DNA of 49,840 nucleotides from Oscillospiraceae bacterium (GTDB lineage Bacteria > Bacillota > Clostridia > Oscillospirales > Ruminococcaceae): the NCBI GenBank assembly GCA_045543635.1, contig JAZQMT010000083.1, positions 1 through 49,840 on the forward strand. Direction: 5' to 3'. Below the pieces are notes generated by a model, which worked only from the letters and a program-made list of their open reading frames with translations, was not told where the DNA came from and ran no database searches. Shown piece after piece: positions 11,147 through 49,566 of the stretch (the first letter of the stretch is position 1; each line of letters opens with the position of its first letter). Both the position numbers and the translations under genes were made by a program.

Positions 11147-12254
11147 TATAGAGTTTAAAAGGGAGGAGCAGGCGGCATTTGCACTGCGCTCGCTTTACCG
11201 TAAATTTGGCTATTCTCAATACAAAATGAGCAAGTTTGAAGAATATGACCTGTATGTTCGTAATAAAGATTTTCTCATTTCGGACAGCGTTATCACCTTT
11301 ACCGATACCAATGGCAGACTGATGGCGCTAAAGCCTGATGTAACTCTGTCTATTATCAAAAACAACAAGGACGATGGCGGCACAGAGAAGGTTTACTATA
11401 ACGAAAATGTTTACCGCGTGTCAAACGGAACGCATTCTTATAAAGAAATTATGCAGGTGGGGCTTGAGCGCATCGGTGATATTGACCTTTACGGTGTTTA
11501 TGAGGTTGTGATGCTTGCAGCGCAAAGCCTTTCTCTTATTTCGCCTGAATGTGTGCTGGATATTTCCCATATGGGGATCGTTACCGCGCTTCTCAAGAGC
11601 TTTGGTGTTTCTCCTGCCTGTGAAAAGGAGATTATGCGCTGTATCGGTGAAAAGAATGTACATGAGGCTTCGGCTGCCGCACAGGCAGAGGGCGTTTCAC
11701 AAGAAAAAATTACGGTTTTAAAAGAAATTATCTCATTGCATGGGTCACCTAAAGCAGTGCTTCCTCGCCTTGTGCGAATTTTGGGAGATGAATGTAAAGA
11801 GGCATTTGGCGAGCTTGAGCAGCTTGTTTGGCTTTTGGAAAAGTCAAGCTGCGCCGATGTGATCAATATAGATTTCTCTGTTATTAATGATATGAATTAT
11901 TATAACGGCATTGTTTTTAAAGGCTTTGTCAAATCGGTGCCCAGCGGAATTTTGTCGGGCGGTCAGTATGATAACCTCATGCACCGTATGAAGAAAAAAA
12001 GCGGGGCCATTGGTTTTGCGGTTTATTTAGACCTTTTGGAGGGAATTGCCTCATCTGCCGAGCAGTTTGATGTTGATGCTGTTATTTTATATGACGAGAG
12101 CACAGATTTAGAGCTGCTTTCTTCATTTGTCGGTCAAAAAACAGCGCAAGGCATGCGGGTTACAGCTGTAAAAAACATTCCCCAAAAGCTGCGCTACAAA
12201 CAGCTTTATAAAATTTGCAACAGGGAGGTTAAAACCCTTGAAAGCAATGCTTAA
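11133..12254 (+). CDS. hisZ: ATP phosphoribosyltransferase regulatory subunit
   Basis: HisRS-paralog catalytic-core pattern without an anticodon-binding domain, immediately upstream of a short-form hisG. Confidence 0.85.
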   Translation: MNLNNIEFKREEQAAFALRSLYRKFGYSQYKMSKFEEYDLYVRNKDFLISDSVITFTDTNGRLMALKPDVTLSIIKNNKDDGGTEKVYYNENVYRVSNGTHSYKEIMQVGLERIGDIDLYGVYEVVMLAAQSLSLISPECVLDISHMGIVTALLKSFGVSPACEKEIMRCIGEKNVHEASAAAQAEGVSQEKITVLKEIISLHGSPKAVLPRLVRILGDECKEAFGELEQLVWLLEKSSCADVINIDFSVINDMNYYNGIVFKGFVKSVPSGILSGGQYDNLMHRMKKKSGAIGFAVYLDLLEGIASSAEQFDVDAVILYDESTDLELLSSFVGQKTAQGMRVTAVKNIPQKLRYKQLYKICNREVKTLESNA

Positions 12255-35072: not shown

Positions 35073-35346
35073 ATATTTTAAATGCGTTGAAGGAATTATT
35101 TTTTACTCGCATTTTCATTTCAGAGAGCTGCCGGTGGTGTGAGTGCGGTATGAAAAGGGTAGAAAAGTCTCATTCCGGAGCAGAGCGGCTGAAATTTTTA
35201 AAGTAAGCGGCTTCGGTTTGCCCCGTTACCATGGCAAAAGGCTTGATTGAGCTTTGATGAGAGGCTGCGCTTTGCAGCAATCAGGGTGGTACCGCGAAAG
35301 TATTTTCGTCCCTGAGACCGAAATTGTCGGTCTCAGGGCTTTTTTA
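35073..35346 (+). promoter_or_regulatory. T-box leader 3 (specifier CUC, Leu)
   Basis: AGAGAG plus GGTGTGA. Specifier-loop context GAAAAGT-CTC-A (codon 35169-35171 followed by A), then TTCC/GGAA pairing and K-turn GGAGCA. T-box AATCAGGGTGGTACCGCG. Terminator CCCTGAGACCG/CGGTCTCAGGG (35310-35338) plus T-run. Confidence 0.85.
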
Positions 35347-35386
35347 TTGCAGGGGAACGGCAAGAATAAGAAAGGAAAGAAAGTTT

Positions 35387-36766
35387 ATGAAACAAATCAA
35401 AATCGCAGACACAACGCTTTGCAGAAAAGAGGGCGCATTTTCGTTTAAAGAGAAGATTGAAATTGCCCGCCAGTTAGAAAAACTTTGTGTTGATGTTATT
35501 GAGCTTCCCGAAATTGAAAACGCAAAAACTGATATTTTGCTTGTAAAAACGATTTCCTCTTTTGTTAAAAAGAGTGTTATTTCGGTTGCCGCGGGAAGCA
35601 GCCGCGAGAGTATTGAGAATGCCGCGTTAGCACTTTCCAACGCTCAAAAAGGCAGAATTCGTATTCAGCTTCCCGTTTCCCCTGTCACAATGGAATATGT
35701 AAGCCGCAAAAAAGCCCCCAAAATGCTTGAGTGGATTTCTGAGGCGGTTTCTTTTGCAAAAGAGAAATGCGCTGATGTTGAGTTTTGCGCTGTAGATGCC
35801 ACCCGCGCTGATAACGGCTATCTGGCGCAGGCTATCGAGGCTGCAGTTTCTGCAGGGGCTACCTGTGTAACTGTTTGCGATAGTGCCGCCGAAATGATGC
35901 CCGATGATTTTGCTGCTTTTATTGCACAAACCATAAAGGAGTGCAGGGTTCCTGTCGGCGTTCATTGCGAAAATAAAAACGGACTTGCGGTTGCCGCCGC
36001 TATCCTCTCGGTAAGAGTGGGAGCAGACTGTGTTAAGACTTCGGTAAACGGTGAGGGTGTTCCTCTTGATACCTTTGCAAATATGATTCGCAACTGCGGA
36101 AATAACTATGATTTTGAGGCGGGAATTCGCAGCACCGAGCTTCATAGAATAGTAAAACAGATCAACTGGATTGCGGGAAACAGCGAAAATGCAAAATCCG
36201 TTGTTTCTGTATCAAATGCGGATGAGATTGGAATTCATCTTGATGTTAAGGATTCTCAGGAGGATGTTTATGCCGCTGTTAAAAAGCTCGGCTATGACCT
36301 TTCTGAGGAGGATCAAGCAAGAGTTTATGAAGAGTTTATCCGCGTTGCCGCTAAAAAGACTGTTGGCGCAAAAGAGCTGGATGCTATCGTTGCCAGCGTT
36401 GCTCTGCAGGTTCCCTCAACCTATCAGCTTGTAAGTTATGTTATAAATAACGGAAACATCATTTCCGCAACCGCACAGATTACCCTCAACAAAAACGGCG
36501 CTCCTATGCAGGGCTTCTCACTTGGTGACGGACCTATTGACGCCGCTTTCCTCGCTATCGACCAGATTATCGGCCACCACTATGAGCTTGATGATTTCCA
36601 GATCCAGTCGGTAACCGAGGGAAAAGAGGCTATGGGCTCTGCATTGGTTAAGCTTCGTGCGGGCGGTAAGCTCTATTCAGGCAACGGAATTTCCACTGAT
36701 ATTATCGGTGCAAGCATCAGAGCTTATCTCAATGCCGTGAATAAAATTGTTTATGAGGAGGCATAA
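35387..36766 (+). CDS. 2-isopropylmalate synthase-like protein with a degenerate catalytic site and an intact LeuA regulatory (LeuA_dimer) domain
   Basis: HMGL-like barrel, but DTTLRDGEQ is DTTLCRKEG, HCHND is HCENK, and GERAGN is GEGVPL. The C-terminus keeps GDGPIDAAF...TEGKEAMG...GNGISTDIIGASIRAYLNAVNK. The ATG at 35387 lies downstream of the leader terminator. Confidence 0.75.
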   Translation: MKQIKIADTTLCRKEGAFSFKEKIEIARQLEKLCVDVIELPEIENAKTDILLVKTISSFVKKSVISVAAGSSRESIENAALALSNAQKGRIRIQLPVSPVTMEYVSRKKAPKMLEWISEAVSFAKEKCADVEFCAVDATRADNGYLAQAIEAAVSAGATCVTVCDSAAEMMPDDFAAFIAQTIKECRVPVGVHCENKNGLAVAAAILSVRVGADCVKTSVNGEGVPLDTFANMIRNCGNNYDFEAGIRSTELHRIVKQINWIAGNSENAKSVVSVSNADEIGIHLDVKDSQEDVYAAVKKLGYDLSEEDQARVYEEFIRVAAKKTVGAKELDAIVASVALQVPSTYQLVSYVINNGNIISATAQITLNKNGAPMQGFSLGDGPIDAAFLAIDQIIGHHYELDDFQIQSVTEGKEAMGSALVKLRAGGKLYSGNGISTDIIGASIRAYLNAVNKIVYEEA

Positions 36767-36768
36767 AA

Positions 36769-39288
36769 ATGAAACTTTCCTTTTCAACAAAGGGTTGGCA
36801 TGATAATTCCTTTGAGGAATTTTGTGATATTGCAGTTGATTTAGGCTTCAAGGGAATAGAATTGCACAATATTTATAACAGACTCTTTACCGAGCGTGAC
36901 GGCGCATTTCACGATTATGCTGCCGCTGCAACGCTGCGTCGTCTCTATGAAAAAAATCTTACCATTCCCTGTATTGACACCATCTGCGATATAGCGGATG
37001 AAAATCAGGCAGAAAAAGCTGTCGAGGAAATAGAAAAATGTCTTGCGATTGCAGAAAATCTGCATATTCCGAATATCCGCCTGCGTGCATTTAAGAAAGA
37101 GGACACCGAAAAAGCCTGCGAGGCTGTTTTTGCTCTGCTTTCTAAAATGATTCCCAATGCAGAGGAAAAGGGCGTTACCCTTGTTTTGGAAACCTCAGGA
37201 ATTTTTGCAAACACTGCCGCTCTCAGAGATATGCTTGACCGCTTTGCCTGCGATAATTTAGGTGCGCTCTGGAATTTCTCTGCAGCTTATTTTGAAAGCG
37301 GCGAAGAGCCTGAAACGGTTATCAAAAATCTCGGTGCATATGTCCGCCATGTGCATTTTAACGATGCTGTTAAGACCGAAAACGGCATGGAATATTGCCT
37401 CGCCGGCGAAGGAGATCTCCCGATCAGTGAGCTGATGCTTTCGCTGCGCTCTGTAAACTATGACGGATTTATTTCGCTCGTCTGGGATCCAGCTTGGTGC
37501 GAGGAACTCGATGATATGGAGATCATTTTCTCCCAGTTTACAAACTTTATGAAGCAATTTAAGGCTGTGTCTCGAAATGAGAAACAGTTGTATTACAATC
37601 GCGCACATACAGGTAAATTTATTTGGGAAAAAGATAAGATTATTGATCTGACCTTTTCACAGGTGTTAGACAGAATGGTAGAGGAATTTCCTGACCAGTA
37701 TGCCTTTAAGTACACAACTTTAGATTATACCCGAACATACAGTGAATTTCGTGACGATGTGGACACCTTTGCCCGTGCTCTTATTTCAATGGGCGTAAAA
37801 GCGGGAACAAAGGTTGCTGTCTGGGCTTCCAATGTGCCGCAGTGGTATATTGCATTTTGGGCAACCGTTAAAATCGGTGCTGTTCTAGTTACTGTCAACA
37901 CCGCTTATAAAATTCATGAGGCTGAATATCTCTTGCGCCAGTCTGATACACACACACTGGTGCTCACCGAGGGCGCAAAGGACACCCACTATGGCAAGAT
38001 CGTTGCAGAGCTTTGCCCAGAACTTGCAGAAAAAGAGCCGACAGAGCCTTTGCACAGCAAACGCCTGCCTTTCCTGCGCAATGTCATCACAGTCGGATTT
38101 AAACAGAAAGGGTGTATGACATGGAGTGAGGCAGTTGAGCGCGCCGCGCAGGTTTCGCCCGAAGAGGTTCGGCGCATGGCTTGCGCCGTTGACAAGGATG
38201 ATGTCTGCAATATGCAGTACACATCGGGAACAACAGGCTTCCCCAAGGGCGTTATGCTCACTCACTATAATGTTGTTAATAACGGCAAATATATCGGTGA
38301 CCACATGGATCTGTCCACTGCTGACAGAATGATGATTCAGGTTCCCATGTTTCATTGTTTCGGAATGGTCCTTTCCATGACCGCTTCGATGACACACGGA
38401 ACTACCATGTATCCTTTGCCGTACTTTTCTCCAAAACCGGCACTGGCTTGCGTTCACAATGAACATATCACCACCTTTAACGGTGTTCCTACCATGTTTA
38501 TCGCCATGATGGAGCACCCCGATTTTGCAAAGACTGATTTCTCTTATATCCGCACAGGCATTATGGCAGGTGCTAACTGCCCTGCCGACCTTATGAAAAA
38601 GGCAACCGAGGTTATGAACATGAAAGAAATCGTCTCGGTTTACGGGCAGACTGAGGCAAGCCCCGGCTGTACGATGAGCAGTTATTATGATTCGTTAGAG
38701 GTTCGCACAGAAACTGTCGGAAGCGCATTTGCCAATGTTGAGTGTAAGGTTGTTGACCCTGAAACGGGTGTGGACTGCCCTGATGGGGTGGATGGTGAAT
38801 TTGTTGCCCGCGGCTATAACATTATGAAAGGCTATTATAAAATGCCTGCTGCAACCGCTGCTGCTATTGATAAGGATGGCTGGCTGCACACAGGCGACCT
38901 TGCATGCCGCACCCCCGAAGGTAACTACCGTATCACCGGCAGACTGAAGGATATGATTATTCGCGGCGGTGAGAATATTTACCCCAAGGAAATTGAGGAA
39001 TTTATTTATACGCATCCCAAGGTCAGCGATGTTCAGGTTATCGGTGTTCCCGATAAACAGTATGGCGAGGAAATTATGGCTTGCATTATTCTGAAAGAAG
39101 GTCAGAGCATGACCGCTGATGAAATGAAAGCCTATATCGGAGCAAATATGGCACGCCATAAGGTTCCGCGTTATATTGATTTTGTTGATAGCTTTCCCAT
39201 GAATGCTGCAGGTAAGATTCTTAAATATAAAATGCGTGAGGATGCTGCAAAAAAACTGGGTTTAGATGAGGCGGGAAATAACAAATGA
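36769..39288 (+). CDS. Fusion: xylose-isomerase-like TIM barrel (sugar phosphate isomerase/epimerase family) + AMP-dependent acyl-CoA ligase (839 aa)
   Basis: N-terminal roughly 270 aa: GFKGIELH...LVLE...HVHFND pattern of AP-endo-2/XylA-like TIM barrels. C-terminus: YTSGTTGFPKGVMLTH, YGQTE, GWLHTGDL, RLKDMIIRGGENIYPKEIE, AGKILK. Confidence 0.8.
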   Translation: MKLSFSTKGWHDNSFEEFCDIAVDLGFKGIELHNIYNRLFTERDGAFHDYAAAATLRRLYEKNLTIPCIDTICDIADENQAEKAVEEIEKCLAIAENLHIPNIRLRAFKKEDTEKACEAVFALLSKMIPNAEEKGVTLVLETSGIFANTAALRDMLDRFACDNLGALWNFSAAYFESGEEPETVIKNLGAYVRHVHFNDAVKTENGMEYCLAGEGDLPISELMLSLRSVNYDGFISLVWDPAWCEELDDMEIIFSQFTNFMKQFKAVSRNEKQLYYNRAHTGKFIWEKDKIIDLTFSQVLDRMVEEFPDQYAFKYTTLDYTRTYSEFRDDVDTFARALISMGVKAGTKVAVWASNVPQWYIAFWATVKIGAVLVTVNTAYKIHEAEYLLRQSDTHTLVLTEGAKDTHYGKIVAELCPELAEKEPTEPLHSKRLPFLRNVITVGFKQKGCMTWSEAVERAAQVSPEEVRRMACAVDKDDVCNMQYTSGTTGFPKGVMLTHYNVVNNGKYIGDHMDLSTADRMMIQVPMFHCFGMVLSMTASMTHGTTMYPLPYFSPKPALACVHNEHITTFNGVPTMFIAMMEHPDFAKTDFSYIRTGIMAGANCPADLMKKATEVMNMKEIVSVYGQTEASPGCTMSSYYDSLEVRTETVGSAFANVECKVVDPETGVDCPDGVDGEFVARGYNIMKGYYKMPAATAAAIDKDGWLHTGDLACRTPEGNYRITGRLKDMIIRGGENIYPKEIEEFIYTHPKVSDVQVIGVPDKQYGEEIMACIILKEGQSMTADEMKAYIGANMARHKVPRYIDFVDSFPMNAAGKILKYKMREDAAKKLGLDEAGNNK

Positions 39289-40100
39289 TAGCAAATTACA
39301 AGGTTATTGACTCGCATTGCCATGTCTATCCTGAAAAGATAGCAGCTGCTGCAGTAGGCGCAACCGATAGATTTTACAACACCGTTTCTGCTTTTGATGG
39401 CAGCACCGGTGCACTGCTCTCGCAATGTGAGAGAGAGGGCGTTGACCATGCGGTCATTCAATCTGTTGCCACAACGCCAAAACAGGTTTCCAGTATTAAT
39501 CGTTTTATTGCAAAAACGGTTGAGGAGAACAAAAATAAGTTTACGGGGCTCGGCACACTCCACCCTGACAGCGCAGATATTGCCGCCGATGTGCGTGAGA
39601 TAATTGAGCTTGGGCTTCATGGAGTAAAACTTCACCCGGATATTCAGCGGTTTAAAATAGATGATTATCGCTGTCTTAAGATTTATGAGCTGTGTGAGAG
39701 AGAGGGGCTTCCCATTCTTATGCATACAGGCGATAACCGCTATGATTTTTCTAATCCAAATAGACTACTGCCTATTTTAAATATCTATACAGGGCTTGTT
39801 GTAATAGGTGCGCATCTCGGCGGCTGGTCTATTTGGGAACAAGCGGGGCAGGTTTATCCGCAATTTGATAACTTCTATGTGGATACCTCCTCAACACTTT
39901 CTTTTTGCGGACCTGAAATAATGAAAAAAGTTATCAAAGCATATGGTGCAGATAAAGTTATGTTTGCAAGCGATTATCCCATGGGAGCACAGCAAAAGGA
40001 AATAGATGCACTGCTTTCGATGCAATTTGCGCAGGAGGATTACAAAAAAATATTCTCCGAAAATGCGAAAAAGGTGTTTAAAATCAAAGGTGACATATAA
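39285..40100 (+). CDS. Amidohydrolase-2 family metal-dependent hydrolase (271 aa)
   Basis: IDSHCHVYP N-terminal HxH-type motif, H.D. and SDYP motifs of the COG2159-type TIM-barrel hydrolases/decarboxylases. Overlaps the stop of the upstream gene. Confidence 0.7.
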   Translation: MIANYKVIDSHCHVYPEKIAAAAVGATDRFYNTVSAFDGSTGALLSQCEREGVDHAVIQSVATTPKQVSSINRFIAKTVEENKNKFTGLGTLHPDSADIAADVREIIELGLHGVKLHPDIQRFKIDDYRCLKIYELCEREGLPILMHTGDNRYDFSNPNRLLPILNIYTGLVVIGAHLGGWSIWEQAGQVYPQFDNFYVDTSSTLSFCGPEIMKKVIKAYGADKVMFASDYPMGAQQKEIDALLSMQFAQEDYKKIFSENAKKVFKIKGDI

Positions 40101-40105
40101 ATTTG

Positions 40106-40134
40106 GATTACGGCGGGTATATCGCGCCGTAATC
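40106..40134 (+). terminator. Hairpin ending the T-box-3 unit
   Basis: GATTACGGCG / CGCCGTAATC stem. The T-run is displaced (AGAAAAATTTGTTTTTTT). Confidence 0.55.
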
Positions 40135-40155
40135 AGAAAAATTTGTTTTTTTCTA

Positions 40156-40184
40156 TTGACTTTTGAAAAAAATAGGAGTAAAAT
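40156..40184 (+). promoter_or_regulatory. Promoter of the aromatic supraoperon
   Basis: TTGACT (40156-40161), 17 nt, TAAAAT (40179-40184). Confidence 0.6.
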
Positions 40185-40217
40185 TTTTTTATTAAGTAAT
40201 TGAAAGGAGTGGGCAAA

Positions 40218-40286
40218 ATGTTCTTTTTTGCATATCGATACTATTTTATCAAGGGCTGCCCGCTTTCTTTTCAGTCGGAAAAGTAA
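40218..40286 (+). CDS. Phe/Tyr-rich leader peptide (22 aa): MFFFAYRYYFIKGCPLSFQSEK
   Basis: AAGGAG SD 8 nt upstream of the ATG. 4 Phe plus 3 Tyr in codons 2-10. The stop codon sits in the loop of hairpin CGGAAAA-GTAA-TTTTCCG (40276-40293). Confidence 0.55.
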   Translation: MFFFAYRYYFIKGCPLSFQSEK

Positions 40287-40312
40287 TTTTCCGCTAAAAT
40301 TAAGAGGACAGT

Positions 40313-40367
40313 CCGCAGCCGTTTATGCCGCTTTTTTATAAGTGGGATAGGTGGATGCGGTTTTTTT
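40313..40367 (+). terminator. Attenuator terminator upstream of the first aro-operon gene
   Basis: 19-nt arms CCGCAGCCGTTTATGCCGC (40313-40331) / GTGGGATAGGTGGATGCGG (40342-40360), with G-U pairs and 2 mismatches. Loop TTTTTTATAA, then T7 (40361-40367). Confidence 0.6.
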
Positions 40368-40394
40368 ATTGAAATTTTTAACGGAGATGATAAA

Positions 40395-41579
40395 ATGATT
40401 TCTCAAGAAATGCTTGCACTCGGAAAAAAAAGCTCGGTCATAAGGGAGATTTTTGAGTATTCCAAAAAGAGAAAGCTTGAAATAGGAGACGAGAATGTTT
40501 TTGATTTCAGCCTCGGTAATCCCAGCATTCCCGCTCCCGCTGTTGTAACCGAAACCATGAGCCGATTCATGCAGGAAAAGGATGCTGTTTCTCTGCATGG
40601 CTACACCTCGGCACCGGGCGACCTAGATGTCCGCAAAACGATTGCCGAAAATATTAAAAAACGCTTTGGCTTTGAGGCTCAAACTGCTCTTATTTATATG
40701 ACCTGCGGAGCCGCCGCCTCGCTTACCATTACCCTTAAAGCCATCATTGAGGAAGGCGACGAGGTTATCTTACTGGCACCCTTTTTTCCGGAATATCAGG
40801 TTTTTGCTGCAAATACGGGAGCAAAAACACGCGTTGTTTTGGGAAAAGGCGAGCAGTTTGAAATAGATGCCGAGGCACTCGCTGCTGCGGTAAATGAAAA
40901 AACAAGAGCGATTATTGTAAACTCTCCCAATAATCCTACAGGGGCTGTTTTAAGTGAGGAAAGCATAAAAACACTCGCAGAGATATTAAATGCAAAGCAA
41001 AAACAATTCGGCACTGCGATCACCATTATTGCCGATGAGCCTTACCGTGAGCTTGTTTACGGTGATGTACAGGTCCCCTATATCCCTAACTACTATGACA
41101 ACACCGTTGTCTGCTATTCTTATAGTAAATCCCTTTCTCTTCCGGGCGAAAGAATAGGCTATATTTCGGTTTCTCCTAAAATGGAAAACGCAGGTGATGT
41201 TTTTGCGGCAGTTTGCGGAGCGGGCAGAAGCATGGGCTATGTTTGTGCTCCCAGCCTCTTACAGTACACTGCCGCCGCTTGTGACGGTGCAGAGCCCGAC
41301 ATCTCGGCTTATGATAAAAACCGCACACTTCTTTATGGGGAGCTTACTAAAATTGGTTATAGCGCCGTTCGTCCCGACGGGGCATTTTATCTCTTTGTAA
41401 AGTCTTTAGAACCGGATGCAAATGCATTTTGTGAGAGAGCAAAAAAATATGAGCTTCTGCTTGTTCCCAGTGATGATTTCGGAGTGAAAGGGTATGTCAG
41501 AATTGCTTATTGCGTTAGCTACGAGCAGATAGAGCGCTCAATCCCCTCCTTTCAGAAGCTTTATGAGGAATATAAATAA
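40395..41579 (+). CDS. Class I PLP aminotransferase (aspartate/aromatic aminotransferase)
   Basis: NSPNNPTG, YSYSKSLSLPGERIGY (PLP Lys), R.AY. First gene of the aromatic operon. Confidence 0.85.
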   Translation: MISQEMLALGKKSSVIREIFEYSKKRKLEIGDENVFDFSLGNPSIPAPAVVTETMSRFMQEKDAVSLHGYTSAPGDLDVRKTIAENIKKRFGFEAQTALIYMTCGAAASLTITLKAIIEEGDEVILLAPFFPEYQVFAANTGAKTRVVLGKGEQFEIDAEALAAAVNEKTRAIIVNSPNNPTGAVLSEESIKTLAEILNAKQKQFGTAITIIADEPYRELVYGDVQVPYIPNYYDNTVVCYSYSKSLSLPGERIGYISVSPKMENAGDVFAAVCGAGRSMGYVCAPSLLQYTAAACDGAEPDISAYDKNRTLLYGELTKIGYSAVRPDGAFYLFVKSLEPDANAFCERAKKYELLLVPSDDFGVKGYVRIAYCVSYEQIERSIPSFQKLYEEYK

Positions 41580-41590
41580 GGAGTACTGTT

Positions 41591-42679
41591 ATGACCGACT
41601 TAAAAGAGGCAAGGCAGATTATAAACGAGGCCGATAAAGGCATGGCGGAATTATTTAAAAAGAGAATGGACGCTGTCCGCCTTGTCGCAGCCTATAAAAA
41701 GGAGCATGGGCTTCCCATTGATGATTTAGCGCGTGAGGAAGAAATGATCGCGCGCAACTCGCAGCTTATTGAAGATGAGAATTACCGCTCCTATTATGTA
41801 AATTTTCTGCGCAATAATATTGAGCTTTCCAAGCAGCTCCAGCATAGGCTTCTGGACGGAATGAGAGTTGCTTACAGCGGAGCCCCCGGCGCGTTTGCCA
41901 ATATCGTTGCAGAGCGCATTTTCCCCGATGCCAAAGCTGTTGCCTATCCTGATTTTAAGGCAGCCTATAATGCTGCTCTTTCAGGTGAGTGCGATTGTGC
42001 AGTTTTGCCTATTGAAAACAGCTTTAATGGTGATGTCAGTAATGTTTTGGATCTTGCGTTCTTTGGCTCGCTTTATGTAAATGGAATATATGAGGCAGAA
42101 ATTATTCAAAATCTTTTGGCAGTCAAGGGTACAACGCTTGACGAGGTCAAAACCGTTATCAGTCATCCGCAGGCACTCGGCCAGTGTGCGGAGTTTATTG
42201 AAAAGCATGGCTTTGAAACAATAGAGGCTGTGAATACAGCGGTTGCTGCCAAACAGGTTGCTCAAATGGACAGACATGATGTTGCAGCCATCGGTTCTGC
42301 CGAAGCGGGTGAAAAGTTCGGGCTTAAAAAGCTTGCTGCTCATATTAATGAAAGCAACACAAACACCACCCGTTTTGCCGTTTTTTCAAGAGCACAGAGA
42401 ACGGCAAGCCCCTCAGATAATCGCTTTATCATGCTGTTTACGGTTAACAATGCCGCAGGCTCGCTGGGGCGTGCGATCTCTGTTATCGGAGAGCATGGAT
42501 TTAACCTGCTTGCCTTAAAAAGCCGCCCCACCAAAGAGCTTGTATGGGATTATTATTTTTATGCCGAGGGTGAGGGCAATATAAACAGTGAGCAGGGCAA
42601 AGCCATGCTTGAGGACTTAAAAGGCAGCTGCAGCAACTTAAAGATTGTCGGCAGTTTTGAAAAAGAGATCCGAATTTAA
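41591..42679 (+). CDS. pheA: Bifunctional chorismate mutase / prephenate dehydratase (P-protein)
   Basis: N-terminal CM type 2 helix pattern (R..I...D..M..L...R). PDT domain VAYSGAPGAF...NTTRF. C-terminal ACT domain. Confidence 0.9.
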   Translation: MTDLKEARQIINEADKGMAELFKKRMDAVRLVAAYKKEHGLPIDDLAREEEMIARNSQLIEDENYRSYYVNFLRNNIELSKQLQHRLLDGMRVAYSGAPGAFANIVAERIFPDAKAVAYPDFKAAYNAALSGECDCAVLPIENSFNGDVSNVLDLAFFGSLYVNGIYEAEIIQNLLAVKGTTLDEVKTVISHPQALGQCAEFIEKHGFETIEAVNTAVAAKQVAQMDRHDVAAIGSAEAGEKFGLKKLAAHINESNTNTTRFAVFSRAQRTASPSDNRFIMLFTVNNAAGSLGRAISVIGEHGFNLLALKSRPTKELVWDYYFYAEGEGNINSEQGKAMLEDLKGSCSNLKIVGSFEKEIRI

Positions 42680-42694
42680 GGAAGAAGGATTGGT

Positions 42695-43708
42695 ATGATA
42701 ATTCCCGTTAAAACCTCGCAGGGCTTTTATGATATTATTTTGGAGCGCGGCGCACTTTTAAGGGCGAAAGATTATTTAAATCTTGACAGAAAGGTGCTTG
42801 TCGTAACCGATAGCGGTGTTCCGAGTGAATATGCACAGGCGATAGCTGCTGTATCAAAAAAGCCCACGGTTGTAACGATAAAAGAGGGCGAGCCCTCTAA
42901 ACAGATGGACAGCCTTAAAATCTTGCTTGAAGCGCTTGTTAAAAATGATTTTACCCGTACCGACTGTGTTGTTGCCGTCGGCGGCGGAGTGGTAGGAGAT
43001 CTTTCGGGCTTTGCTGCCAGCATTTTTATGCGCGGTATTGATTTTTATAATATCCCCACAACCGTGCTTTCGCAGGTGGACTCATCAATCGGCGGCAAGA
43101 CTGCTATTGATTTTATGGGAATTAAAAATATTGTCGGCGCTTTTTATCCGCCGAAAAGAGTTATCATAGATGCGGACACGCTGAAAACTTTACCTGCACG
43201 CCAAATCTCAAATGGGCTTGCCGAAGCGGTTAAGATGGCGGCAACCAGTGACAGTAAGCTTTTTGAGATATTTGAAAAGGGCGATGCTCTTAAAAATATT
43301 GACACCGTTATCGAGCGTTCCTTGCGTGTAAAAAAACAGGTGGTTGAAGAGGATGAGCACGAATCAGGGCTTCGCAAAATTTTAAACTTCGGACACACAC
43401 TGGCGCATGCAGTTGAAAGCACCTATGCAATGAAAGAGCTTTATCATGGTGAGTGTGTAAGCCTCGGGATGTTACCTATGTGCAGTGAACAGGTTAAACA
43501 AAGGCTTTTGCCTGTTTTAAGAAAATTAAATCTTCCTACCGAAATTTCAGCAGATGCACAGGCACTTATTGAGGCGTGCCGCCACGATAAGAAAACAGCA
43601 GGAGACGATATAACTGTTGTGTTGGTACACGAGATAGGCTCATTTGAGCTAAAGAAAATGCCATTTACAGAGCTTGAAGATAGAATTAGGCAGGTGATAG
43701 GGAAATGA
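42695..43708 (+). CDS. aroB: 3-dehydroquinate synthase
   Basis: GGGVVGDLSGFAA, PTT.LSQVDSSIGGKT, GHT.AHA.E motifs. Confidence 0.9.
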   Translation: MIIPVKTSQGFYDIILERGALLRAKDYLNLDRKVLVVTDSGVPSEYAQAIAAVSKKPTVVTIKEGEPSKQMDSLKILLEALVKNDFTRTDCVVAVGGGVVGDLSGFAASIFMRGIDFYNIPTTVLSQVDSSIGGKTAIDFMGIKNIVGAFYPPKRVIIDADTLKTLPARQISNGLAEAVKMAATSDSKLFEIFEKGDALKNIDTVIERSLRVKKQVVEEDEHESGLRKILNFGHTLAHAVESTYAMKELYHGECVSLGMLPMCSEQVKQRLLPVLRKLNLPTEISADAQALIEACRHDKKTAGDDITVVLVHEIGSFELKKMPFTELEDRIRQVIGK

Positions 43709-44799
43709 AAAATACATTTGGAAATCATGTATCGGTAACTATTTTCGGCGAGAGCCACGGCATGGGTATCGGTGCTGTTTTAGATGGTATTTCCCCCGGA
43801 ATTGAGGTAAATGAAGAGTATATCAAAGAGATCCTTTCTCTGCGCCGCCCTGGCGGTGCAATTTCAACCGCACGCCGGGAAATGGACGAATTTGTTATTC
43901 AAAGCGGCGTTTTTGAGGGCAAAACAACCGGAACCCCCATCTGTATTACCATTCCAAATTCTGACACCCGCTCCAAAGATTACAGCAGCATGAAATCAAC
44001 AGTACGCCCCTCCCATGCTGATTACACCGCCCAGTGTAAGTATCATGGATTTCAAGATTATCGCGGCGGCGGACATTTCAGCGGAAGAATAACTGCGGCA
44101 GTTTGCGCCGCGGGTGCCATTCTCATGTCGGCACTTTCTAAAAAAGGCATTTTAATAGGCACACATATAAAGAAATCCGGCGGTGTCTGTGACCGCGATT
44201 TTGAAAATTACACAGAAGATATGAAAAAACTCTCTCAAACTCCGTTTGCCGTTTTAGATGAGGCGGCAGGAGAAAAAATGCAGGAACATATAATGGCTGC
44301 TAAAGGTGAGGGAGATAGTCTCGGCGGTGTTTTGGAAACTGCTGTTATCGGTTTAGATGCCGGACTCGGGGAGCCGTTTTTCGATAGTGTTGAAAGCATG
44401 ATTTCCCATGCAATGTTCTCTATTCCCGGAGTGAAGGGAGTTGAGTTCGGAGCGGGCTTTGCGCTCTCCGATATGAAAGGCTCACAGGCAAATGACGCGC
44501 TTTGTATACAAAACGGAGGCGTTAAAACCCTTTCCAATAACAGCGGCGGCATTAACGGTGGTATTACCAACGGAATGCCCATTGTTTTCCGTTGTGCTGT
44601 TCGCCCCACTCCCACACTTTCCAAGCAACAGCAGACAATAGATTTTGAAAAGCTTGAGGATACCACACTCGCGGCAGGCGGCAGACACGACCCTTGCATC
44701 GTTCACAGAGCGAGAATTGTTGTAGATGCGTTGGCGGCTATCGTACTTGCTGATATATTAGCGGGGCGTTACGGAACAGATTGGTTGGGTGCAGAATGA
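43705..44799 (+). CDS. aroC: Chorismate synthase
   Basis: FGESHG, RRPG, RPSHAD, GGGHFSGR, GGRHDPC motifs. Confidence 0.95.
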   Translation: MKNTFGNHVSVTIFGESHGMGIGAVLDGISPGIEVNEEYIKEILSLRRPGGAISTARREMDEFVIQSGVFEGKTTGTPICITIPNSDTRSKDYSSMKSTVRPSHADYTAQCKYHGFQDYRGGGHFSGRITAAVCAAGAILMSALSKKGILIGTHIKKSGGVCDRDFENYTEDMKKLSQTPFAVLDEAAGEKMQEHIMAAKGEGDSLGGVLETAVIGLDAGLGEPFFDSVESMISHAMFSIPGVKGVEFGAGFALSDMKGSQANDALCIQNGGVKTLSNNSGGINGGITNGMPIVFRCAVRPTPTLSKQQQTIDFEKLEDTTLAAGGRHDPCIVHRARIVVDALAAIVLADILAGRYGTDWLGAE

Positions 44800-46049
44800 T
44801 TTACGGTTGTATCGGAGAAAAATTAGGCCATAGCTTTTCCAAGGATATTCATAACAGACTTTTTGATTATGATTATGAGCTTTGCGAAATTCCCAAAGGC
44901 GAGCTTGATGCCTTTATGAAAAAACGCCCTTTTCGCGCTATCAATGTTACCATTCCGTATAAACTGGATGTAATACCGCATCTTTATGAAATAAGCCAAA
45001 TTGCAAAAAAGATAGGCGCGGTCAACACCATTGTAAACAGAGATGGCAAGCTTTATGGTTATAACACGGATTTTTCAGGGCTGTGCGCGTTGATAAAAAG
45101 AAACGGAATTGAGATACAAGCAAAAAAGGTGCTTGTTCTCGGCAGCGGCGGCACCTCTAAAACTGCGCTCGCAGTTGCGGAGCATTTGGGCGCGCGGGAA
45201 GTATATAAGGTTTCACGCTCTGAGCGCGAGGGCTGTATCACCTATGAAACCGCCCTCAGGGAGCATAGCGATGCTGAAATAATTTTAAATACTACTCCTT
45301 GCGGTATGTACCCGAATATCGGGGACTCCGCCGTGGATGTAAATGATTTCCCAAACCTTTGCGGCGTTGTCGATGCGGTCTACAATCCGCTTCGCAGTAA
45401 ACTTGTTTGCGATGCCAGAAAAAAAGGTATTTTGGCTGTCGGCGGGCTTTATATGCTGGTTGCACAGGCAGCATATGCTGCCGAAAAATTTGTGGGACAG
45501 AGCGTTGCTGAGGAAAAAATTGAGACAGTTTATAAGAGCCTTGTTTTAGAAAAGCAAAATATTGTTCTTATCGGAATGCCCGGTTGCGGCAAATCGACGA
45601 TCGGCAAGCTCCTTGCACAGGAGCTTAATATGGAGTTTGTTGACAGTGACGAGGAAATTGTTAAGAAAACCGGAAAAACCATCCCTGAAATTTTTAAAAG
45701 CTGCGGCGAAAGCGGTTTTAGAGAAATAGAAAGCCGGATTATTTATGAGCTTTCTAAAAAACAGCACGCCGTTATTGCAACGGGTGGCGGAGCTGTTTTA
45801 AACCGCCGAAATACCGAGCTTCTTTGGGGAAACGGCAGAATATATTTTATCGACCGTCCGCTTTCTTCGATTGTTGCAACCAGTGACCGCCCGCTTTCGA
45901 GCAACCGTGAGGACTTAGAGCGCCGCTACCATGAGCGATATAATATTTATTGTGAGAGTTGTCACTGTCATATAAAAGCATGTGATGATGCAAAGGAAAA
46001 TACACAAAAAATAAAAGAGGATTTTCAAAATGAAGCTACTTGTGATTAA
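44796..46049 (+). CDS. aroE: Fused shikimate dehydrogenase / shikimate kinase
   Basis: N-terminal G..L.HSFSKDIHN, NVTIPYK, NTD, GSGGTSK. C-terminal Walker A GMPGCGKSTIGK plus GGG.V. ATG at 44796; the ORF-track TTG at 44781 is less likely. Confidence 0.85.
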   Translation: MIYGCIGEKLGHSFSKDIHNRLFDYDYELCEIPKGELDAFMKKRPFRAINVTIPYKLDVIPHLYEISQIAKKIGAVNTIVNRDGKLYGYNTDFSGLCALIKRNGIEIQAKKVLVLGSGGTSKTALAVAEHLGAREVYKVSRSEREGCITYETALREHSDAEIILNTTPCGMYPNIGDSAVDVNDFPNLCGVVDAVYNPLRSKLVCDARKKGILAVGGLYMLVAQAAYAAEKFVGQSVAEEKIETVYKSLVLEKQNIVLIGMPGCGKSTIGKLLAQELNMEFVDSDEEIVKKTGKTIPEIFKSCGESGFREIESRIIYELSKKQHAVIATGGGAVLNRRNTELLWGNGRIYFIDRPLSSIVATSDRPLSSNREDLERRYHERYNIYCESCHCHIKACDDAKENTQKIKEDFQNEATCD

Positions 46050-46485
46050 CGGTCCCAACTTAAATATGCTTGGCATCCGCGAACCGCAAATCTACGGCAG
46101 TGAAACCTATGCAGATTTATGCAAACTCATAAATAAGCATGCCGAGAAAAAAGGATATGAGGTTGAGATTTATCAGTCCAATCATGAAGGAGACCTTGTT
46201 GACAAAATTCAAGGTGCCTACAATAAAAAGGATGGTATTGTTATAAATCCTGCTGCTTATACTCACACAAGTGTAGCACTGCTTGATGCACTTAAAGCTG
46301 TTGGACTGCCGGCAATTGAGGTCCATATCTCGGATGTTTCCAAAAGAGAGGTTTTTCGGCAGATTAGCTTTGTCAGAAGTTACTGTTTGAAAACCATTGC
46401 GGGCCATGGATTTTTAGGCTATCTTGAGGCGATGGATATTTTAGCCCAAAAGAACGGGGAAGATCAGAATGAAGGTTGTCATTAA
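46030..46485 (+). CDS. aroQ: Type II 3-dehydroquinate dehydratase
   Basis: INGPNLN.LG.REP..YG, QSNHEG, INPAAYTHTSVA, EVH.S motifs. Confidence 0.95.
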   Translation: MKLLVINGPNLNMLGIREPQIYGSETYADLCKLINKHAEKKGYEVEIYQSNHEGDLVDKIQGAYNKKDGIVINPAAYTHTSVALLDALKAVGLPAIEVHISDVSKREVFRQISFVRSYCLKTIAGHGFLGYLEAMDILAQKNGEDQNEGCH

Positions 46486-47677
46486 AAAGTCCCGAGCAAG
46501 CGGCTACGTTTGTGCACCGCCTTCCAAAAGCATGGCGCACAGAGCGCTTATCTGCGGTGCCCTTTCGGGACAAAGTGAGATTTTAAACCTCGCACCCTCC
46601 AAGGATATAACGGCTACGTTAGGCTGTTTAGAGGCACTTGGAGCAAAAATCGACAAAATACAAAACGGTATAAAAATAGGCGGGCTTGATATAGGTAACC
46701 CAAGCAAAAATGCTGTCCTTTTTTGTAATGAAAGCGGCAGCACACTGCGATTTCTTATTCCGCTTTGCATGCTGTCGGGCGAAAAAATCACCCTGACGGG
46801 AAGTGAAAGGCTTTTTCAGCGTCCGCTCACCGTTTACGAGGAAATAAGTAAAAATCATGGGATTTTCTTTGAAAAAACCAAAAACAGCGTTACCGTTTGC
46901 GGAAAGCTTAAAGCCGGAGATTACAGAGTCGCCGGAGATATATCAAGCCAATTTATTTCGGGGCTGATGTTTGCGCTTCCGCTCCTTGCTCATGACAGTA
47001 CCATTGAGGTAACGGGGAAGTTTGAGAGTGCTTCATATATTGATTTGACTGTCAGCGCACTTTCGGAGTTTGGTATTGCAATTAAAAGAGAAAAAAATAC
47101 ATTCTATATTGAAGGAAATCAGCGATACCGAAACAGTAGATATACTGTTGAGGGTGACTGCTCCAACGCTGCATTTTTAGAGGGCTTTAACCTTCTGGGC
47201 GGGCAGGTCACAGTTTCAGGGTTAAATTCTAAAACACTGCAGGGAGATAGCGTTTACCGCGATATTTATAAAGAATTGGTTTCAGGAAATCGGCAGTTTG
47301 ACCTTTCGGATTGCCCTGATTTAGCGCCCGTGCTGTTTGCACTTGCTGCTGCAAACGGCGGTGCTCATTTTACAGGGACAGCAAGGCTTCGCATCAAGGA
47401 AAGTGACCGTGCCTGTGCTATGCAAAAAGAGCTTGCCAAGCTTGGTATAAAGGTTTTGGTGGAGGAAAATGAGGTTTGGGTTTTGGGCGGCGAGCTGAAA
47501 GCTCCTACAGAGCCGATTTGTTCGCACAATGACCATCGAATCGTTATGGCACTTTCGCTGCTGCTCACTAAAACAGGAGGAACCATCCTCGGTGCCGAGG
47601 CGGTCAGCAAAAGCTACCCCGACTTTTTTGATGTTCTAAAATCTTTAAAGATTGGAATGGATATTTATGATCATTGA
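46469..47677 (+). CDS. aroA: 3-phosphoshikimate 1-carboxyvinyltransferase (EPSP synthase)
   Basis: PPSKSMAHRALI, ESGSTLRF, KESDR and DHRI.M motifs. Confidence 0.9.
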   Translation: MKVVIKKSRASGYVCAPPSKSMAHRALICGALSGQSEILNLAPSKDITATLGCLEALGAKIDKIQNGIKIGGLDIGNPSKNAVLFCNESGSTLRFLIPLCMLSGEKITLTGSERLFQRPLTVYEEISKNHGIFFEKTKNSVTVCGKLKAGDYRVAGDISSQFISGLMFALPLLAHDSTIEVTGKFESASYIDLTVSALSEFGIAIKREKNTFYIEGNQRYRNSRYTVEGDCSNAAFLEGFNLLGGQVTVSGLNSKTLQGDSVYRDIYKELVSGNRQFDLSDCPDLAPVLFALAAANGGAHFTGTARLRIKESDRACAMQKELAKLGIKVLVEENEVWVLGGELKAPTEPICSHNDHRIVMALSLLLTKTGGTILGAEAVSKSYPDFFDVLKSLKIGMDIYDH

Positions 47678-48530
47678 TTCTTCTAAAAAAATTCTTATTA
47701 TCGGTCTGGGGCTTCTCGGCGGAAGCTATGGAATGGCATTGCGCCGCAAAGGTTATCATGTTTCGGCAATAACACTCGATCAGGAATCGATTGATTACGC
47801 TTTGGAGCATAATATTATAAGCCAAGGAACTACAAAGGTAGACCCCCAGCTTATTGCCTCTGCTGATATAATCGTTTTTGCGCTTTATCCCCATGTATTT
47901 CTTGATTGGGTGCGCCAAAACGGACACCTTATCCAAAAGGGGACGATTGTCACCGATGTAACAGGTGTCAAGGGCTGTGTGGTTTATGATATTCAGAAAA
48001 TGCTGCCCGAGGGTGTTGAGTTTATTGCAGCACACCCCATGGCAGGTAGAGAAGTTTTCGGTGTGAAAAACAGTGATGACAGTATCTTTCAGGGCGCTAA
48101 CTATATTGTTGTTCCTACCGAAAAGAACACCTATTCCGCAATTGAGCTTTGTAAAAGTCTTGGTCAGGAGCTGGGGTTCTCGGATGTCTCGGTACTGCCG
48201 CCTGAGCGACACGATGAAATGATAGCATTTCTTTCCCAGCTTACGCACTGTATTGCCGTTGCGCTCATGTGTGCCTCTGATGACCCTAATCTTGAGCGTT
48301 ATACAGGAGACTCTTTCAGGGATTTAACAAGAATTGCAAACATTAATGATAAAATGTGGAGCGAGCTGTTTTTATCCAACCGCGAAACACTGCTTTCTCA
48401 GATGGATAGCTATCGCGCAACATTTGAGCGGCTTTATAACACCATTAAAACAGGTGACCGTGAAGAAATGCGAAGTATGATGAGAATTTCCTCCGAGCGC
48501 CGCCGAAATTTTGATAAAAAGAAGGTTTAA
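47667..48530 (+). CDS. tyrA: Prephenate dehydrogenase
   Basis: ILIIGLGLLGGSYG Rossmann motif, HPMAG, and SHLPH-like SQLTHC. Start at 47667 preferred; 47652 is possible. Confidence 0.85.
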   Translation: MIIDSSKKILIIGLGLLGGSYGMALRRKGYHVSAITLDQESIDYALEHNIISQGTTKVDPQLIASADIIVFALYPHVFLDWVRQNGHLIQKGTIVTDVTGVKGCVVYDIQKMLPEGVEFIAAHPMAGREVFGVKNSDDSIFQGANYIVVPTEKNTYSAIELCKSLGQELGFSDVSVLPPERHDEMIAFLSQLTHCIAVALMCASDDPNLERYTGDSFRDLTRIANINDKMWSELFLSNRETLLSQMDSYRATFERLYNTIKTGDREEMRSMMRISSERRRNFDKKKV

Positions 48531-48537
48531 AACTCCT

Positions 48538-49566
48538 ATGAATATGCATTTTTACAGAAAATTACCCATTCCTAAGGATATTAAGGAACAGTATCCGATC
48601 ACCGAGCAAATGGCCGCGGTAAAAAAACAGCGTGATGATGATATTCGTGCCGTTTTTCAGGGAAAGAGTGATAAATTTTTGCTTATTATCGGCCCCTGTT
48701 CGGCAGATAACTATAATTCGGTTTTGGATTATATCTCTCGCTTGCGGCTGGTTCAGGATAAGGTACAGGATAAAATAATCATTATTCCCCGCATTTACAC
48801 CAATAAGCCTCGCACCACAGGTGATGGTTATAAAGGGATGCTTCATCAGCCTAATCCCGATGAAAAACCGGATATGTTAAAGGGTATCCTTGCGATTCGC
48901 GATGTGCATGTTGCGGCTTTGCGCGATTATGGATTTTCTTGTGCCGACGAAATGCTTTATCCCGAAAATTATCGCTATCTTTCCGATCTTCTTTCCTATG
49001 TCGCAGTAGGTGCCCGCTCGGTTGAAAACCAGCAGCACCGCTTAACCTCCAGCGGTCTTGACATTCCTGTTGGAATGAAGAACCCCACCAGTGGTGACCT
49101 TTCTATCATGATGAATGCCATTACTGCTGCACAGCACAGCCATATATTCCTCTATCGCGGCTGGGAGGTGGAGAGTGCCGGCAACCCTTGCGCTCATGCG
49201 ATCATGCGCGGTTATATTGATTTTGCCGGTAAAAATGTTTCCAACTACCATTATGAGGACCTTTTGAAGCTTTCTGAGATTTATGCAAAATCGGGGCTTG
49301 CAAATCCCTCTGCAATTGTTGATACCAACCATGCAAACTCAGGGAAGAAGTATCTGGAGCAGATAAGAATTGCAAATGAGGTAACTTACAGCCGCAGAGT
49401 AAACCCTGATATTAAAAAGCTTGTTAAAGGGCTTATGATAGAAAGCTATATTGAAGATGGTGCACAAGGCATTGGTGAGCATATTTACGGCAAGTCTATC
49501 ACTGACCCTTGTCTTGGTTGGCAAAAAACTGAAGCGCTCATTTTGGAACTCGCCGAAAAACTTTAA
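48538..49566 (+). CDS. aroG: 3-deoxy-7-phosphoheptulonate (DAHP) synthase, class I (AroG/F/H type)
   Basis: IGPCS, R.Y..KPRTT..YKG, GAR..E.Q.HR...SGL..PVG.KN, D..HANS, GKSITD.C.GW motifs. Start uncertain (48511 TTG, 48538 or 48544 ATG). Confidence 0.85.
   Translation: MNMHFYRKLPIPKDIKEQYPITEQMAAVKKQRDDDIRAVFQGKSDKFLLIIGPCSADNYNSVLDYISRLRLVQDKVQDKIIIIPRIYTNKPRTTGDGYKGMLHQPNPDEKPDMLKGILAIRDVHVAALRDYGFSCADEMLYPENYRYLSDLLSYVAVGARSVENQQHRLTSSGLDIPVGMKNPTSGDLSIMMNAITAAQHSHIFLYRGWEVESAGNPCAHAIMRGYIDFAGKNVSNYHYEDLLKLSEIYAKSGLANPSAIVDTNHANSGKKYLEQIRIANEVTYSRRVNPDIKKLVKGLMIESYIEDGAQGIGEHIYGKSITDPCLGWQKTEALILELAEKL

Follow-up and report, generated by a model that had tools for sequence, protein, structure and literature searches.

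A conserved Phe/Tyr leader peptide and probable transcription attenuator upstream of a nine-gene aromatic amino acid operon in Oscillospirales

A Phe/Tyr-rich leader peptide precedes the aromatic operon

A stretch of 49,840 nucleotides (nt) from an Oscillospiraceae bacterium (assembly GCA_045543635.1, contig JAZQMT010000083.1, positions 1 to 49,840 of the forward strand), referred to here as the window, carries a nine-gene operon for the biosynthesis of Phe and Tyr. The region immediately upstream of this operon, at 40156-40394, encodes a short peptide rich in Phe and Tyr followed by an intrinsic terminator. The data obtained in this study indicate that this leader is very probably a ribosome-mediated transcription attenuator of the operon, in which translation of the Phe and Tyr codons of the leader peptide would set the level of read-through. 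An attenuator of this type had been proposed in an earlier, sequence-only reading of the window, and every sequence-level prediction of such an attenuator that can be examined without an experiment was borne out. The sequence features by which classical attenuators are recognized were all found, namely, an open reading frame (ORF) with a ribosome binding site (RBS) near the 5' end of the RNA, codons cognate to the products of the pathway, a terminator (helix 3:4), an antiterminator (helix 2:3), an anti-antiterminator (helix 1:2), and matching spacing between the codons and the helices.

All elements of the leader lie on the forward strand. The sigma-70-type promoter at 40156-40184 consists of TTGACT (40156-40161) and TAAAAT (40179-40184) separated by a 17-nt spacer, with 10/12 matches to the consensus, and transcription is predicted to start near 40191, giving a leader RNA of about 175 nt. 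The Shine-Dalgarno (SD) sequence AAAGGAG (40203-40209) is located 8 nt 5' of an ATG at 40218, which opens a 22-codon ORF (40218-40286) encoding MFFFAYRYYFIKGCPLSFQSEK and closed by a TAA codon at 40284-40286. Codons 2 to 10 of this ORF (40221-40247) read TTC TTT TTT gca TAT cga TAC TAT TTT, so that seven of the nine specify Phe or Tyr. When all six frames of the window were searched for at least seven Phe/Tyr codons in nine, the leader ORF was the only occurrence. The stop codon is held in the GTAA loop of a hairpin (40276-40293) formed by CGGAAAA (40276-40282) and TTTTCCG (40287-40293). The terminator occupies 40313-40367, with 40313-40333 pairing with 40340-40360 and seven U residues following at 40361-40367. 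Its stem of 19 bp (5+8+6) contains two single-base interruptions, because of which a simple terminator scanner overlooked it, and the folding energy of the hairpin was -24.7 kcal/mol (RNAfold). The end of the T-tract lies 27 nt before the ATG of the first gene, encoding an aminotransferase, at 40395. The 210-nt region from 40185 to 40394 as a whole folded with z = -3.65 relative to dinucleotide shuffles.

The promoter, the SD, the 22-codon ORF, and the terminator claimed in the sequence-only reading were therefore all recovered by direct reading, ORF listing, folding, and consensus scanning. The same was true of the Phe/Tyr run, the stop codon within the CGGAAAA/TTTTCCG loop, and the hairpin with 19-bp arms and T7, apart from the two interruptions in the stem.

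Conservation of the leader peptide

Homologs of the aminotransferase were collected from one genome per GTDB species, which gave 80 loci, all from Clostridia-type metagenome-assembled genomes (MAGs). The closest loci belonged to Oscillospiraceae and Acutalibacteraceae, with aminotransferase identities of 85 to 64% (the top match, at 85%, being an Oscillospiraceae MAG), and the leader-bearing species, about 30 in number, extended down to 58% identity. At 29/80 loci, an SD-preceded ORF of 20 to 27 codons containing 4 to 9 Phe/Tyr codons was located 75 to 145 nt 5' of the gene; the encoded peptides include MFVKSFYYFYYFTLDCLTSFKKAA and MFGYVSYRFYYFKTDCLYACKA. The sequence-only reading had named the absence of the peptide from orthologous leaders as grounds for rejecting the attenuator, and the peptide proved to be conserved in about 30 species-level genomes.

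Thirty leaders were aligned. The SD and an NTG start were kept in 30/30, with the SD-like purine block at the same position and the start-codon column occupied by ATG, GTG, or TTG (alignment A1), while a promoter of the type TTGACA-17-TAAAAT was found 29 to 43 nt 5' of the leader start codon in 29/30. Phe and Tyr accounted for 218 of 673 codons (32%) in frame 0, whereas the two shifted frames gave 64 and 92; this enrichment is partly circular because the 30 leaders were chosen by their Phe/Tyr content. The reading frame, SD, start column, spacing, RNA structure, and the reverse search described below are independent of that choice. The codon counts were 96 TTT, 22 TTC, 71 TAT, and 29 TAC, with no TGG. 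Within the core run, C was nearly confined to third codon positions, one codon showing T13/C15, and alternation between A and T was observed at second codon positions only. This codon-position periodicity supports selection on Phe and Tyr codons rather than on a U-rich RNA. Directly 5' of the core F-Y-Y-F run, a CGA (Arg) codon was present in the window (40236-40238) and in about half of the relatives, which may be due to RNA pairing, slow decoding, or chance.

Alternative RNA helices are conserved in the family

Four RNA segments with alternative pairings were defined. Segment 1 (40202-40225), made up of the SD, the AUG, and codon 2, is the 5' strand of the anti-antiterminator, an element that the sequence-only reading did not include. 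Segment 2 (40251-40271) is the switching strand, predicted to pair either with segment 1 (off) or with segment 3 (on). In the window, the 1:2 pairing is composed of helices 40202-08/40265-71, 40209-15/40257-63, and 40220-25/40251-56. Segment 3 (40302-40314; AAG.GG.CAGUCC) is the 3' strand of the antiterminator, and its last 2 nt are the first 2 of the terminator stem. In the family consensus, segment 3 ends in GGACAGYCCGC and overlaps the 5' base of the terminator, with segment 4, GCGGG followed by U residues, forming the 3' base. The Phe/Tyr codons thus occupy the loop between segments 1 and 2, and the stop codon occupies the loop between segments 2 and 3.

Folding of the whole leader gave a minimum-free-energy structure (-56.8 kcal/mol) with helix 1:2, the stop-codon hairpin, and the terminator. 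Since the terminator is part of this fold, the default state is predicted to be termination. When segment 1 was excluded, segments 2 and 3 paired instead, capped by the stop-codon hairpin. The conserved core of the antiterminator in the window is GGGCUG (40253-58) paired with CAGUCC (40309-14) and extended through the stop-codon hairpin. The sequence-only reading had placed the alternative pairing between ATCAAGGGCTGC and GCAGCCGTTTAT; this pairing does exist, at -36.2 kcal/mol when enforced, but it is not the one conserved in the family. In the window it joins GGCUGC (40254-59) to GCAGCC (40315-20), and it was rejected as the antiterminator, being also not the minimum-free-energy pairing.

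When each of the 30 leaders was folded as a single sequence, helix 1:2 was found in 29/30, 2:3 in 29/30, and 3:4 in 30/30, with mean z values of -2.1, -4.4, and -5.0, respectively. On alignment A1, the 14-bp 2:3 helix was 75.5% paired, compared to 27 to 38% when the strands were slid against each other, and 8 of its 14 pairs changed on both sides. At the base of the terminator, compensatory changes were observed at 4/7 pairs. With RNAalifold, the terminator base was the sole element recovered from a MAFFT alignment, owing to misalignment of the variable hairpins, and the analysis was therefore based on named helices, per-sequence folds, and duplexes between cognate or swapped strands. Cognate strands paired better than swapped ones for 1:2 (-17.1 versus -13.4 kcal/mol), 2:3 (-18.0 versus -15.5 kcal/mol), and 3:4 (-24.5 versus -17.1 kcal/mol), and in each case 0/5,000 permutations were as good, although both these and the shuffle statistics overstate independence, as the 30 leaders are related. 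The mutually exclusive structures that had been expected from folding were thus observed at the level of the family, in which the terminator and an alternative antiterminator are conserved and covary.

The geometry of the leader was also retained. A hairpin between segments 2 and 3 was present in every lineage despite unrelated sequences (mean z = -2.4), and the leader stop codon lay inside it in 29/30 leaders. The last Phe/Tyr codon started 7 to 10 nt 5' of the point at which pairing of segment 2 begins, again in 29/30. The segment 2 motif (A)CGGACTGYCTG was kept as nucleotides and fell in a different reading frame in three leaders (L016, L019, and L026). The apparent peptide motif TDCL is therefore a reflection of an RNA constraint.

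The leader is associated with the aromatic operon

The aminotransferase gene was followed by pheA-aroB-aroC at 37/80 loci, and the leader was present at 29 of these 37. At the 43 loci without a following pheA, it was never found (0/43). The leader therefore belongs to the aromatic operon and not to the aminotransferase gene.

For a reverse test, a metagenome collection was scanned with a pattern derived from segments 2 and 3 only. This returned 41 contigs, of which 12 were unrelated sequences from soil-type samples without a terminator and 29 had the terminator. A Phe/Tyr ORF was present in 28 of the 29, bringing the homologous ORFs of 20 to 27 codons to 29 GTDB loci plus 28 metagenome contigs. 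The remaining contig (L104, approximately 7290-7400 in reoriented coordinates) had a 1-nt insertion in a T-run, the extra T placing the Phe/Tyr run out of frame with the start codon, and is a decayed copy if not the product of an assembly error. Several of the 29 terminator-bearing contigs were labeled as human-gut assemblies. Every contig that reached past the terminator had an ATG about 15 to 30 nt after the U-tract, a position resembling that of the aminotransferase start in the GTDB relatives.

When the regions upstream of 14 leaderless loci (Lachnospiraceae and others) were aligned, no shared motif emerged, and a scan of 20 leaderless loci against Rfam at the gathering threshold gave just one unrelated S-adenosylmethionine (SAM) riboswitch. 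A box of the form (C/G)(A/T)TTTAAA-N4-TAAAG adjoined the aromatic-operon promoter in both leader-bearing and leaderless relatives. It was located about 15 to 20 nt 5' of the -35 element at L010, L012, L016 to L019, L023, and L025 to L028 and just 3' of the -10 box at L035, L044, L045, and L051, while L055 and L070 had another palindrome, GTTAAC-N4-GTTAAC, at the corresponding place. These promoter-adjacent palindromes are candidate operators for DNA-binding regulators. The TTTAAA-N4-TAAAG box was not found in the window itself.

Proposed mechanism of attenuation

According to the proposed mechanism, a ribosome would engage the emerging leader prior to transcription of segment 2. With both tRNA-Phe and tRNA-Tyr charged, it would proceed to the stop codon, melt the hairpin there, and sit between segments 2 and 3. 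Segment 2 would then return to segment 1, the terminator would form, and transcription would end at about 40367. If either charged tRNA were short, the ribosome would stall within the run, 7 to 10 nt before segment 2, leaving segment 2 exposed. Taking a ribosome footprint that reaches about 12 to 13 nt in the 3' direction, the leading edge of the stalled ribosome is expected to stop short of segment 2. Its bulk would separate segments 1 and 2, so that segment 2 could capture segment 3 as it emerges. Formation of 2:3 would remove the G-C pairs at the terminator base next to the U-tract, and the polymerase would read into the operon. In the absence of translation, 1:2 and 3:4 would both form, leading to termination. 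The leader would thus be expected to sense both Phe and Tyr, and because every leader contains both types of codon, starvation for either amino acid alone should suffice.

Several observations weigh against this interpretation, in addition to the selection of leaders by Phe/Tyr content and their relatedness. Helix 1:2 was weakly supported when tested column by column on the MAFFT alignment (61% paired versus 38 to 46% slid, with weak covariation), probably due to misalignment of the SD region. The overlap of 2:3 with the terminator amounts to only 2 nt in the window (C40313 and C40314) compared to a family median of 6 nt, and RNAfold indicated that a 17-bp terminator remnant, 2 nt off the U-tract, can coexist with 2:3. 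The antiterminator and terminator therefore exclude each other in the family but only marginally in the window, where read-through would depend either on losing the two G-C pairs that adjoin the U-tract or on the GGCUGC/GCAGCC pairing, which is weaker. Eight related operons lack the leader and have promoter-proximal palindromes in its place. In addition, transcription and translation are reportedly uncoupled in Bacillus subtilis, which would count against a device that depends on their coupling.

A more far-reaching interpretation can be put forward only tentatively. The window leader may be the founding example of an attenuator family widespread in Oscillospirales of the gut and rumen, with a topology unlike that of enterobacterial attenuators and with the ribosome acting as a wedge rather than a mask. 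It is similarly conceivable, though doubtful at present, that a ribosome stalled within the RBS-sequestering 1:2 loop forces 2:3 to form, while a ribosome resting on the stop-codon hairpin imposes 1:2 and termination. As the leader RBS is hidden by segment 2, loading of the ribosome would need to take place during the approximately 60 nt of transcription that precede this segment. The U-rich Phe/Tyr run, with its TTNTTT-type sequences, might double as an RNA polymerase pause that provides the timing. If the wedge model were true, it would imply tight timing between transcription and translation in a lineage of Clostridia, unlike in the uncoupled B. subtilis, and an OR gate for Phe or Tyr starvation placed over the entire pathway.

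Alternative explanations

The alternative that survives best, although it is unlikely, is a switch controlled by a ligand or protein that uses the same terminator and antiterminator without translation, the ORF being incidental to a U/A-rich RNA. The conservation of segments 2, 3, and 4 as nucleotides irrespective of reading frame fits such a switch, and the eight leaderless operons with apparent DNA operators imply that regulation by trans-acting factors exists in the clade. The element might even correspond to the "aspC motif," a riboswitch candidate listed upstream of a putative aminotransferase (PMC11109978). However, the U/A-rich run varies as codons do, with its frame held relative to the SD and NTG start, and the ORF is open in all aligned leaders, its stop codon lying in the same structural element in 29/30. 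No conserved multistem, aptamer-like core with invariant unpaired nucleotides was apparent in the alignment; nucleotide conservation lies in the mutually complementary strands themselves. Neither an Rfam family match nor a TRAP site was found in the leader. Specifically, cmscan of 39900-40600 against all 4,227 families of Rfam 15 gave chance-level matches only, the best being a viral frameshift site (E = 0.65). Rfam includes the gammaproteobacterial Phe, Trp, His, Leu, and Thr leaders as well as a Lactococcus leu/phe leader. A TRAP-regulated trp-type leader was rejected, as 40192-40394 contains four irregularly spaced (G/U)AG triplets rather than 9 to 11 spaced by 2 to 3 nt.

A role of the ORF product as a functional peptide, small and hydrophobic, or as a TnaC- or SecM-type nascent-chain arrest peptide acting as a sensor of free Phe or Tyr is very unlikely. 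The recurrence of R-F-Y-Y-F, often after the rare CGA Arg codon, and the conserved length of 20 to 27 residues could be read in this way, but the peptide is unconserved outside the aromatic run, the TDCL motif being due to RNA pairing and frame-shifted in three leaders as described above. The free interchange of Phe and Tyr within the run fits classes of codon identity better than a specific arrest sequence. Furthermore, with an arrest peptide, abundant Phe or Tyr would open the antiterminator and raise biosynthesis, which is the wrong regulatory sign.

A chance ORF, lying between a promoter and a leaky terminator or mRNA-stabilizing hairpin and having no regulatory role, is highly improbable. 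TTT and TAT codons are common in AT-rich intergenic DNA, and from a single sequence chance cannot be excluded, but the density of seven in nine is unique in the window, the ORF, SD, and spacing to segment 2 are kept in about 30 species, and the association with the operon is strict (29/37 versus 0/43).

A divergent T-box reading uncharged tRNA-Phe or tRNA-Tyr, the usual device for aromatic operons of Clostridia, can be dismissed with near certainty, since the leader of about 175 nt has no Stem I and no T-box match was obtained at E ≤ 10 in 39900-40600 or, for this operon, at the gathering threshold across the window. The T-box class was ruled out by both the Rfam scan and a pattern search, with a T-box leader at 35078-35316 (+; RF00230, 117.8 bits), 5 kb upstream of the operon leader, as the positive control. 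In agreement with the sequence-only reading, the leader contained no box resembling GGTGGTACCGCG. With up to two mismatches allowed, the T-box sequence was absent upstream of the window gene and within 400 nt upstream at the 80 loci, among which the sole match lay 417 nt upstream (L014). The T-box at 35078-35316 was the only cis-regulatory RNA in the window recognized by Rfam at the gathering threshold and indicates that the organism uses T-boxes, though not at the aromatic operon.

Comparison with known systems

The closest functional analogue is aroR of Corynebacterium glutamicum, a Phe-Tyr-Phe leader peptide that precedes aroF (Neshat et al. 2014, as cited in PMC11802643). As outlined there, aroR is likewise a transcription attenuator with a leader peptide in a Gram-positive bacterium; it has mixed Phe and Tyr codons and controls entry into the shikimate pathway, with ribosome stalling on these codons giving more read-through, as is proposed here for the window leader. 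On the same account, aroR differs in belonging to Actinobacteria, in having three aromatic codons rather than 4 to 9, and in preceding an aroF-containing operon rather than a supraoperon comprising the seven shikimate steps, pheA, tyrA, and an aminotransferase; the likeness noted here is one of function. In the aroR experiments as reported in PMC11802643, Phe limitation was effective and Tyr limitation was not.

The enterobacterial pheL-pheA, pheM-pheST, and trpL systems share with the window leader a short ORF with cognate codons, the alternative helices 1:2, 2:3, and 3:4, and a terminator before the first gene, and in these attenuators, too, an untranslated leader leads to termination by default. 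The leader described here differs in its mixture of Phe and Tyr codons rather than Phe only, its Clostridia host, and its lack of a match to the Rfam leader families. Its segment 1 is its own SD, AUG, and codon 2, so that the regulatory codons are in the 1:2 loop instead of inside segment 1, and its stop codon is enclosed by a conserved hairpin that separates segment 2 from segment 3.

The uORFC-13-1 motif, with 24 representatives found only in Acholeplasma and environmental DNA, is located upstream of aroF (PMC8632094). Similarly to the window leader, it was predicted from sequence alone and combines a predicted upstream ORF, promoter, RBS, Phe-coding U-run, and intrinsic terminator with a shikimate gene in a Firmicutes-related host. 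Compared by description only, it differs in encoding at least one Phe, with no Tyr reported, and in having aroF downstream. Leader-peptide attenuators with His codons have been predicted in the Bacillus cereus group, Peptostreptococcaceae, and Erysipelotrichales (PMC9413887). These are also comparative-genomic predictions, consisting of a leader peptide, terminator, and antiterminator in lineages without the usual T-box or repressor, but they concern His codons, his operons, and other bacterial families. The statement in the sequence-only reading that Firmicutes mostly use T-boxes or TRAP is fair, although attenuators had already been predicted there for his (PMC9413887) and for Acholeplasma aroF (PMC8632094).

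The motif called aspC (SRC-45-1) is an orphan riboswitch candidate from a 2024 survey, with more than 1,000 mostly metagenomic representatives (PMC11109978). As presented in the survey's prose, it resembles the leader in its position upstream of a putative amino acid aminotransferase and in having few highly conserved nucleotides. Its description as a three-stem junction with an extra stem, the only basis for the comparison, fits the leader poorly, and the 50 genomes of that survey include none from the leader-bearing families. In the literature searched, which did not extend to papers in subscription journals, a Phe/Tyr leader was not found described for either Clostridia or Oscillospirales.

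The regulated operon and its surroundings

The nine genes of the operon, all on the forward strand, were identified as those named in the sequence-only reading. The first encodes a pyridoxal phosphate-dependent aminotransferase (40395-41579; NCBIfam NF005305, E = 7e-164), followed by chorismate mutase/prephenate dehydratase (pheA, 41591-42679), aroB (42695-43708), aroC (43705-44799), an aroE-aroK fusion (44781-46049), aroQ (46030-46485), aroA (46469-47677), tyrA (47652-48530), and 3-deoxy-D-arabino-heptulosonate 7-phosphate (DAHP) synthase (48511-49566). Together they provide all seven shikimate steps and both terminal branches. Neighboring genes overlap or adjoin one another, as would be expected of a single transcription unit. 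The operon makes Phe via pheA and Tyr via tyrA and contains no trp genes, which matches the occurrence of Phe and Tyr codons, and the absence of Trp codons, in the leaders. A second promoter-like match at 40369-40396 (+), 3' of the terminator, has TTGAAA, a 16-nt spacer, TAAAAT, and an extended TG, and there is an overlap between its -10 box and the aminotransferase ATG. The match probably arose by chance in AT-rich sequence, but a genuine promoter at this position would allow basal expression independent of the attenuator.

The T-box at 35078-35316 precedes a three-gene unit consisting of a 2-isopropylmalate-synthase-like gene (35324-36766), a xylose-isomerase-like TIM barrel fused to an acyl-coenzyme A (acyl-CoA) ligase (36769-39288), and a gene for an Amidohydro_2 protein (39285-40100). 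Further upstream, a 102-residue TrpR-family protein is encoded at 10838-11146 (+; PF01371, E = 5.5e-28), its gene overlapping the downstream hisZ (11133-12254), which opens an apparent his operon in which hisZ and hisD were identified and ORFs continue to 19322. The order of the TrpR-family gene and hisZ matches the arrangement described for HisR-type repressors (PMC9413887). The his operon in the window is thus preceded by a HisR-like gene, unlike the His attenuators of that study. Within 50 kb, one genome would combine three different devices for amino acid control, namely, a repressor of the HisR type, a T-box, and a leader peptide.

Two tandem paralogous genes at 25675-27942 and 28302-30590 (+) encode acyl-CoA synthetases that are MbcS-like or acetate-CoA-ligase-like. 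Both have N-terminal extensions of about 220 to 250 residues, and the extension of the 25675-27942 product contains HTH_19 and Cupin_2. Such a joining of a regulator-type module and an adenylating enzyme is unusual. Two neighboring tRNA genes, at 354-427 and 436-506 (+; Rfam tRNA, 65 and 63.6 bits), were found close to the beginning of the window.

Significance

Leader-peptide attenuation of amino acid operons is documented mainly in Proteobacteria and Actinobacteria, whereas Firmicutes usually employ T-boxes, TRAP, or repressors. From its conserved sequence features, the leader described here is best read as a new conserved family, in Oscillospirales, of a known kind of regulator, with which the aspC motif may conceivably overlap. 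It adds a regulatory annotation to about 30 species-level genomes and many metagenome contigs, and it may offer a compact Phe/Tyr-responsive part for the engineering of anaerobes. It also provides a natural system in which to ask whether ribosomes of Clostridia can keep up with RNA polymerase. For the organisms themselves, a structurally complete predicted attenuator would span the whole Phe and Tyr pathway in uncultured, abundant Clostridia of the gut and rumen.

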